Of a DNA stretch of 53,317 bases, positions 1 to 52,925 are shown piece after piece. The notes beneath the pieces are model-generated. The model searched no databases, was not told the DNA's origin, and was given only the letters and a program-made list of their open reading frames with translations. The stretch lies in NCBI GenBank assembly GCA_043738315.1, contig JAYUGT010000287.1:1-53317 (forward strand). Reading direction: 5' to 3'. Position 1 is the first letter of the stretch. Every line of letters begins with the position of its first letter. Source of the stretch: Gammaproteobacteria bacterium (lineage in GTDB: Bacteria > Pseudomonadota > Gammaproteobacteria > Steroidobacterales > Steroidobacteraceae). A program made the translations under genes and the position numbers.

Positions 1-1476
1 GTCGCCATCGCTGATCGCAAACCACTCGCCGTCCCAGTCCTGGGTGAGTTCGCCGGCAGCCGAGACTTCCACCGGCAGCGACCCGATCATGAGCCGGGCA
101 TCGCCCTGTGGAATTGCGACGATAAAGCGGACATTGTCGATGTCGTCAGCGCTCAGGCGCGCCGTAATTTTGGCCGATTTGCCGCTGGCGAGTTCCTCGG
201 TGTCGGATTTTACGGGGCTGATCTGCGGGTCGGTTTTGTCCTGCGCTTCAATGCTGGAATATTCCTGCAGGAATGGAAACCAGCGGTTACTCTGCGCAAA
301 GCCCGTTTCGTTGTAGGCGGTTTCACCGCGGGCCGCGAGTTTCTCCCGATTGGGAGGAAAGAAAATCGACATGCCAGACGCGTTAGGTCGCGCCTGGCCG
401 TGTATTTCGTAAACGACGGCGCTGCGCACCGCCGCCTCGACGCCGCCGGCCGCACGCTTGCTGGCGTCGTCCCTGACCATCGCCGCCACGTTCTGCGCGA
501 ACTGCAGCAAATCGTAGACCAGGGATCCGCCGCGCGCGCCGGTTGACCGGCCGTATTCCCCGGTGTCGCTGCGGGCGCGCGCCAGAGATACCCACGCGGC
601 GCGCCCGCCGCGCGCCAGGTGGGCGCTGGTCGCCGCCGATAACGCCTGGACCGCGCCTTCGACCGCCGGAATTTTCGCAAGATCAAGCAGCGACAGCGTG
701 ATGCCTTTGGCCTGGTCTTCAGCACCGAAGGAAGCGCGATAACTGTCGATGATCATGCGACCTAACACGGCGCCGTCCGAACCCGGTGCGCGATTCACGG
801 CGGTCAGCCAGGCCGTGTAGTCCCAGCCTTCCACCGGTTCGATTTCTTCGGAGGCGAGCAGGTACTTTGCGAACGGCGTCAATGCCGCCGCGACCTCGAG
901 ATTGGCCATCACACAGGCGTCGAAGCCAATGAGTTCCAGCTTGCCGTGCTTGGCCACCACGTCCTGCAGCACCGAGGAAATTTCCAGCAGCGTCAGGGTA
1001 TCGCTATCGTTGCTTTCATCGACTGCAACTCCGGGCCAGGCCATGCCGTGATCGCCGAACACCAGCGCAAAGCGCTGCGCGGGGTAATCGCGCATCGTAG
1101 ATTCGACGAAATCGCTGAGCGTGGCCGGATTACCCATGTTGGCCTCGCCCTTGTCAGCCAGCTCACGCAACTTGCCGGGTTCAACGTACAGGAGTTTCGC
1201 ACTGGTCCAGTCCGGAAGATTGGCGACGCTGCTGTTAGTGTATTTGCCGTCGCCCCGCGGATGCCGGTCCGCCAGCACTACGACATTGACCTGGGCGGTG
1301 CTGCCCACCTTGAGCATCTCCCGCAGGTCCTGCATCTGCGGCGCCTCGAGGTCATTGTCGGCGGCAAGATAGATCATGACGGTCCAGGCGGCGGGCGCCG
1401 CCTGGGCTACGGCGACCTGCGCGCCACAACTCAAAGCTAACAAAGCGATGATCAAAACGCGAAAGCAGTGGTCCAT
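1..1476 (-). CDS. Secreted clostripain-family (peptidase C11) cysteine peptidase, C-terminus cut by the window edge
   Basis: Not in the supplied track. The minus-strand frame is open from ATG at 1476 down to base 1; I checked every triplet and found no TTA/CTA/TCA in that phase, so the stop lies left of the window. N-terminus MDHCFRVLIIALLALSCGAQVAVAQA looks like a Sec signal. AADNDLE, FGDHGMAW (His) and IGFDACVM (Cys) match the C11 His-Cys dyad context. Confidence 0.75.
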   Translation of the reverse strand, partial: MDHCFRVLIIALLALSCGAQVAVAQAAPAAWTVMIYLAADNDLEAPQMQDLREMLKVGSTAQVNVVVLADRHPRGDGKYTNSSVANLPDWTSAKLLYVEPGKLRELADKGEANMGNPATLSDFVESTMRDYPAQRFALVFGDHGMAWPGVAVDESNDSDTLTLLEISSVLQDVVAKHGKLELIGFDACVMANLEVAAALTPFAKYLLASEEIEPVEGWDYTAWLTAVNRAPGSDGAVLGRMIIDSYRASFGAEDQAKGITLSLLDLAKIPAVEGAVQALSAATSAHLARGGRAAWVSLARARSDTGEYGRSTGARGGSLVYDLLQFAQNVAAMVRDDASKRAAGGVEAAVRSAVVYEIHGQARPNASGMSIFFPPNREKLAARGETAYNETGFAQSNRWFPFLQEYSSIEAQDKTDPQISPVKSDTEELASGKSAKITARLSADDIDNVRFIVAIPQGDARLMIGSLPVEVSAAGELTQDWDGEWFAISDGD

Positions 1477-1484
1477 GAATTATT

Positions 1485-2471
1485 TCAGCCCAGGCGGATG
1501 ATGACTTTGCCGTCGCGCTCGACGCCGGTGAGGGCCGCGCGCTGGCAGGCCGCAACGATGTCGTCCAGTCCATAGACGCCCGCGATTCGCGCCTGCAGGG
1601 TGCCGCTCGCCATGCGCTCGGCCAGGCGGGCATACATCGCGCGGACTTTCGCCGGCGTCCAGTGCTGCTGGAACTGGCGGCCGAAGCTGACACCCACGAG
1701 ACGAATGTCACTGCGGAACATCAGGTAGAAGTCGAGGTGACAGGGTTCGCGCGACATCGCGCCGTAGCTGGCGACCGTGCTGCCCGGCGCGAGGCAACGC
1801 GCAAGCCGCTGCGTGGCCGCTCCTGCAACAGCGTCAAACGCGACCTTCGGCGCGACCCCTCCGGTAGCGCTGGCGACCCGCGCTGGCAGGTCATCGCCAT
1901 CCAGCAGCACGACATCGCCACCCAGGGTTGTTAGCTCGGGAACCAGCTCGGCGCGCCGCACCACGTTGACGGTGCGGATGCCACGCTCGCGGGCAAGGCG
2001 GATCACGTAGCGGCCACAGCTGGAATTGGCTGCGTTCTGAATCAGCCAGTCGCCGGGCGCGAGATTGCCGTAGTCCGACAGCAGTACTTCGGCGGTGGCG
2101 CCGTTGACGACTAACAAGGAGAGCTGGATCGCGTCGCCGGGCGGCGCCGGCAGGCAGGCGGCAGCTTTGCAGCGCACTTCCTCGCGAAAGGTCCCGCTGC
2201 CGAGCGCGGCAAAGACCCGGTCACCGACGGTGTATTCGCGCACGCCGCGGCCGCAACGGGCGACATGTCCAATGCCCTCGAACCCGGGCGTGCGTGGCAA
2301 CGGCGGTTGAAATCCGGGCAACCCGCGTATGGTGAACAGGTCCGCGATGTGCAGCGCCGCGGCTTCCATGCGGATGACGACTTCATCGTCCTCCGGCATC
2401 TCCTGCGGCAGGTCAACTACCTTTAGCACCTGCTCGGGTGGCCCAAATTCGAAATGTCGCGCTGCTCGCAT
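1485..2471 (-). CDS. Medium-chain dehydrogenase/reductase family NAD(P)H-dependent enoyl/quinone reductase
   Basis: 328-aa ORF with a GroES-like N-domain (TPGFEGIGHV) followed by a Rossmann region, as in zinc-free MDR oxidoreductases. Confidence 0.8.
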   Translation of the reverse strand: MRAARHFEFGPPEQVLKVVDLPQEMPEDDEVVIRMEAAALHIADLFTIRGLPGFQPPLPRTPGFEGIGHVARCGRGVREYTVGDRVFAALGSGTFREEVRCKAAACLPAPPGDAIQLSLLVVNGATAEVLLSDYGNLAPGDWLIQNAANSSCGRYVIRLARERGIRTVNVVRRAELVPELTTLGGDVVLLDGDDLPARVASATGGVAPKVAFDAVAGAATQRLARCLAPGSTVASYGAMSREPCHLDFYLMFRSDIRLVGVSFGRQFQQHWTPAKVRAMYARLAERMASGTLQARIAGVYGLDDIVAACQRAALTGVERDGKVIIRLG

Positions 2472-2516
2472 TGCGCTAGGCTAACCCACACAGGCGGTAA
2501 AATCACCGAGGTTGTC

Positions 2517-51374: not shown

Positions 51375-52637
51375 TCAGCGGCCGGACAGTGGCGAGCGCA
51401 GTGCGTGCAGGGGCTCGAACAGCCACTCGATCAGGCTGCGCCGGTCGCCGACGATGTCCGCCTCCAGCAGCATGCCGGCCTTGAGCGGCTCCGCGCGGCC
51501 GTAGGCGGCAACAAACTGGCTGGTCAGTTCGACGGTTACGCGGTAGAACGGCTCGTCGATGGCCAGCCCGCCTAACAACGCGCGCGCCTGCACCGGAGCC
51601 AGCGCGTTGCGGCTGACCTGCCGGACCAGGCCGCGGTGGTGGCCAAATTTCTGGTACGGAAATGCCTGGTAACGCAATTGCACGGCGTCGCCCGGCCTGA
51701 CGAAGCCAATGGCGCGGCTGGGCAGCAGCAGTTCGGCCTGCAGCACCGAATTGACCGGCAGCACACTGAGCAGCTGCTGCCCGGCCTGCACCGATTCGCC
51801 AGCCTTGACGAGTATCGAGGTGACCGTGCCGGGCACTGGGGCCGTGATTGCGGATTCATGCGTGGCATCCAGTTCGATGCGCTGCTGTTCCAGCGATACC
51901 AGTTCGCGGTCGAAGGGGTCGAGGGCCGCCTGTTGTTCGGCCGGCCATTCGGCGAGCGACTGCCGGATCTGCGCCAGGCTGCGCGCCACCGCGGTCCGCT
52001 GCCGCAGCAAAGCCTGCAGTTCAGCCTGCTGGGCGAGCGTTGTTGCCTGCTGCTGCCTGAGCTGCAGTGTGCTGACGAAGTGCTGCTGCTCGAGCGCACG
52101 CCACTGCGCCAGCGTTTCATCGCCGAGGCGCAGTTGGGTCCGGCGCGTTTCCAGCTCGGCGTCGGCCATGGCGAGTTCCGCCAGGGTCGCGCGCAGCTGC
52201 GCCTCCAGTCCGTTGCGGCGCAGCAGGCAGCGCTGCAGGGCCAGCGCGCGCCCATCGACGAGTTCGGCACGGCGCTGCGACAGGTTGACGCGTGTTGCCT
52301 CGACATTGTCGCGCGTGCCCGAGGCGCGCGGCATGCGTATCAAAGCTAACAAAGTGCCCGTCCCGACGCGCGCACCCTCGGCCACCGGCACCTGCACGAC
52401 CACTCCGGACAGCGGCGCCAGGGCAGTCGCGACGCCGTTGCGGGGGATGAGCTGCCCGATCACGCGGGTACGCCGGGTGTAGCCGCCCTGCGCAAGAAAA
52501 AGCACCAGCAGCGCTCCGCTCAGCAGCGCGGCAACCGTCAGCAGGCGCAGTGTGAGCGGCTGACCGCGCAGGATGCCGCCCAGCTGAGCGCTGTGCCTGG
52601 CCTCGATGGCCTCGGGACGGAACAGGCTGTCGGTCAA
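51375..52637 (-). CDS. HlyD/CvaA-family secretion adaptor
   Basis: TTG start. LFRPEAIEA N-terminus, one TM segment, a long coiled coil and a C-terminal barrel. 9 nt upstream of the ABC gene. Confidence 0.85.
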   Translation of the reverse strand: MTDSLFRPEAIEARHSAQLGGILRGQPLTLRLLTVAALLSGALLVLFLAQGGYTRRTRVIGQLIPRNGVATALAPLSGVVVQVPVAEGARVGTGTLLALIRMPRASGTRDNVEATRVNLSQRRAELVDGRALALQRCLLRRNGLEAQLRATLAELAMADAELETRRTQLRLGDETLAQWRALEQQHFVSTLQLRQQQATTLAQQAELQALLRQRTAVARSLAQIRQSLAEWPAEQQAALDPFDRELVSLEQQRIELDATHESAITAPVPGTVTSILVKAGESVQAGQQLLSVLPVNSVLQAELLLPSRAIGFVRPGDAVQLRYQAFPYQKFGHHRGLVRQVSRNALAPVQARALLGGLAIDEPFYRVTVELTSQFVAAYGRAEPLKAGMLLEADIVGDRRSLIEWLFEPLHALRSPLSGR

Positions 52638-52645
52638 GTTACCGG

Positions 52646-52807
52646 CTACTGGGCGTTGAACAGCGCGCGGTCATCGACGCACGGCAGCAGCGGGAATTCG
52701 TAGGCTCGTGGCGTTTCGACGTTGAATACATACGGCGCGCTGCACGCTTCCTGGCATGCGGCCGCGCCATCGACCTGCGCGATCTCAGCTTGTGTCAATT
52801 CGTTCAT
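52646..52807 (-). CDS. Double-glycine-leader precursor peptide (53 aa), putative exported microcin or signal peptide
   Basis: Not in the track because it is under 60 aa. ATG 52807 to TAG 52646, verified codon by codon: MNELTQAEIAQVDGAAACQEACSAPYVFNVETPRAYEFPLLPCVDDRALFNAQ. AAGGA SD (52815..52819) lies 7 nt upstream. The leader LTQAEIAQVDGA fits the consensus L-x-x-x-E-(L/I)-x-x-(I/V)-x-G-(G/A). The ORF ends 8 nt before the HlyD gene. Confidence 0.7.
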   Translation of the reverse strand: MNELTQAEIAQVDGAAACQEACSAPYVFNVETPRAYEFPLLPCVDDRALFNAQ

Positions 52808-52925
52808 GGCAGATTCCTTTCCCTGTCAGCCGATTGAATTTTCGACTGCGATGCTGCAATACCGGTGCTGCGCTGAGAAGACGCATGGGCCGCTATCTAA
52901 CAAATGCGGCGAATATTGCCAGGAA

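Follow-up and report, generated by a model that had tools for sequence, protein, structure and literature searches.

Rare DNA 'self tags' are known in Neisseria, Haemophilus and cyanobacteria. Here we describe YGTTAG, a new word that behaves like such tags; full-text literature searches found no described element with this sequence, as an earlier sequence-only reading of the same DNA had stated. The window (the whole stretch of DNA analysed, 53.3 kb) has a G+C content of 64.5%, lower than the 67% which that reading had estimated.

Abundance and shape of the word

The window holds 114 copies of GTTAG/CTAAC (51 GTTAG and 63 CTAAC) and 130 of TTAG/CTAA, as well as 3 of CTTAG/CTAAG and 37 of GTTAC/GTAAC; extended forms are also frequent (TGTTAG, 83 copies; TTGTTAG, 43; TTTGTTAG, 25). 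The sequence-only reading had arrived at the same tallies for all of these that it counted except GTTAC/GTAAC, which it put at about 30. The core proves to be a strict hexamer, YGTTAG, flanked by weaker preferences (TTYGTTAGSY): position –1 of the 114 copies is T in 83, C in 28, A in 1 and G in 2, and position +1 is C in 58 and G in 44, matching the preferences noted in the sequence-only reading.

An order-2 Markov model predicts 24 GTTAG, 4.5 TGTTAG and 0.2 TTTGTTAG. When synonymous codons were shuffled in the window with the codon usage of each gene preserved, expected values were 33.1 ± 4.4 vs. 114 observed for GTTAG (z = 18), 10.5 vs. 83 for TGTTAG (z = 29) and 1.3 vs. 25 for TTTGTTAG (z = 41). 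The iteration is real, and stronger than originally proposed. GC-matched relatives would lead one to expect some 2–10 copies of GTTAG/CTAAC rather than 114; 257 kb of their DNA scaled to 53 kb gave 1.2 TGTTAG and 0.8 CGTTAG. The excess is 20–70-fold, and chance is ruled out as its origin.

Maintenance at the DNA level

The word occupies four reading frames and intergenic DNA (examples in Table 1, all correctly called in the sequence-only reading), and it is written against the host's own codon preferences. The window has 71 TTA codons, 60 of which are found solely within the motif. The flank rules (Y at –1, S at +1, Y at +2) are common to coding-strand, non-coding-strand and intergenic sites. 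ATG-TTA-GGT in the motif-bearing clade corresponds to ATG-CTC-GGC in motif-less relatives, three synonymous changes. These observations support the earlier claim that the word is maintained at the DNA level rather than the protein level; protein or codon effects are ruled out.

Table 1. Example sites of the word in the window and their readings
Site	Reading
38683	HMLG
5348	GPNG
10164	GVSY
3345	CTA-ACA

Spacing and distribution

Only 2 of 113 gaps fall below 100 bp and the longest is 1558 bp (38683 to 40241), as had been reported; the term 'over-dispersed' applied to them was mistaken, the spacing being under-dispersed, i.e., regular. The coefficient of variation of the gaps was 0.52 vs. 0.99 ± 0.09 for random placement (as low in 0 of 20000 simulations), and the gaps depart from an exponential distribution (KS test, P = 7e–8). 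This regularity is a property of both orientations pooled, and the signal is therefore independent of orientation. Both orientations are used without polarity; a Chi/KOPS-like polar signal is not supported.

The word extends beyond the window: it is carried, at 2–4 copies per kb, by seven independent contigs of this clade that come from metagenomes. The gammaproteobacteria that bear it, a group from soil and water, are uncultured and carry evenly spaced copies, one per 250–500 bases, on both strands; sister lineages at ~80% IlvI identity have 0 copies. Site positions are conserved, 81% being kept at 76% nucleotide identity vs. 26% for any 5-mer, and conserved sites use the rarest Leu codon, yet are retained. 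Neither engineering nor an artefact of assembly can be the source of the signal, and a neutral repair ratchet is likewise ruled out.

Possible function and known tags

Our best guess, a tentative one, is a tag linked to transformation or recombination, whose biased transmission would maintain YGTTAG. Alternatively, the word may be a methylation-linked or nucleoid-structuring mark. The likeness to DNA uptake sequences (DUS and USS) and to HIP1, which the sequence-only reading had recognized, holds for the excess, use of both orientations without polarity, regular spacing, intragenic location, clade restriction and conservation of site positions. YGTTAG differs from DUS and USS in its much shorter core, and from the palindromic HIP1 in being non-palindromic.

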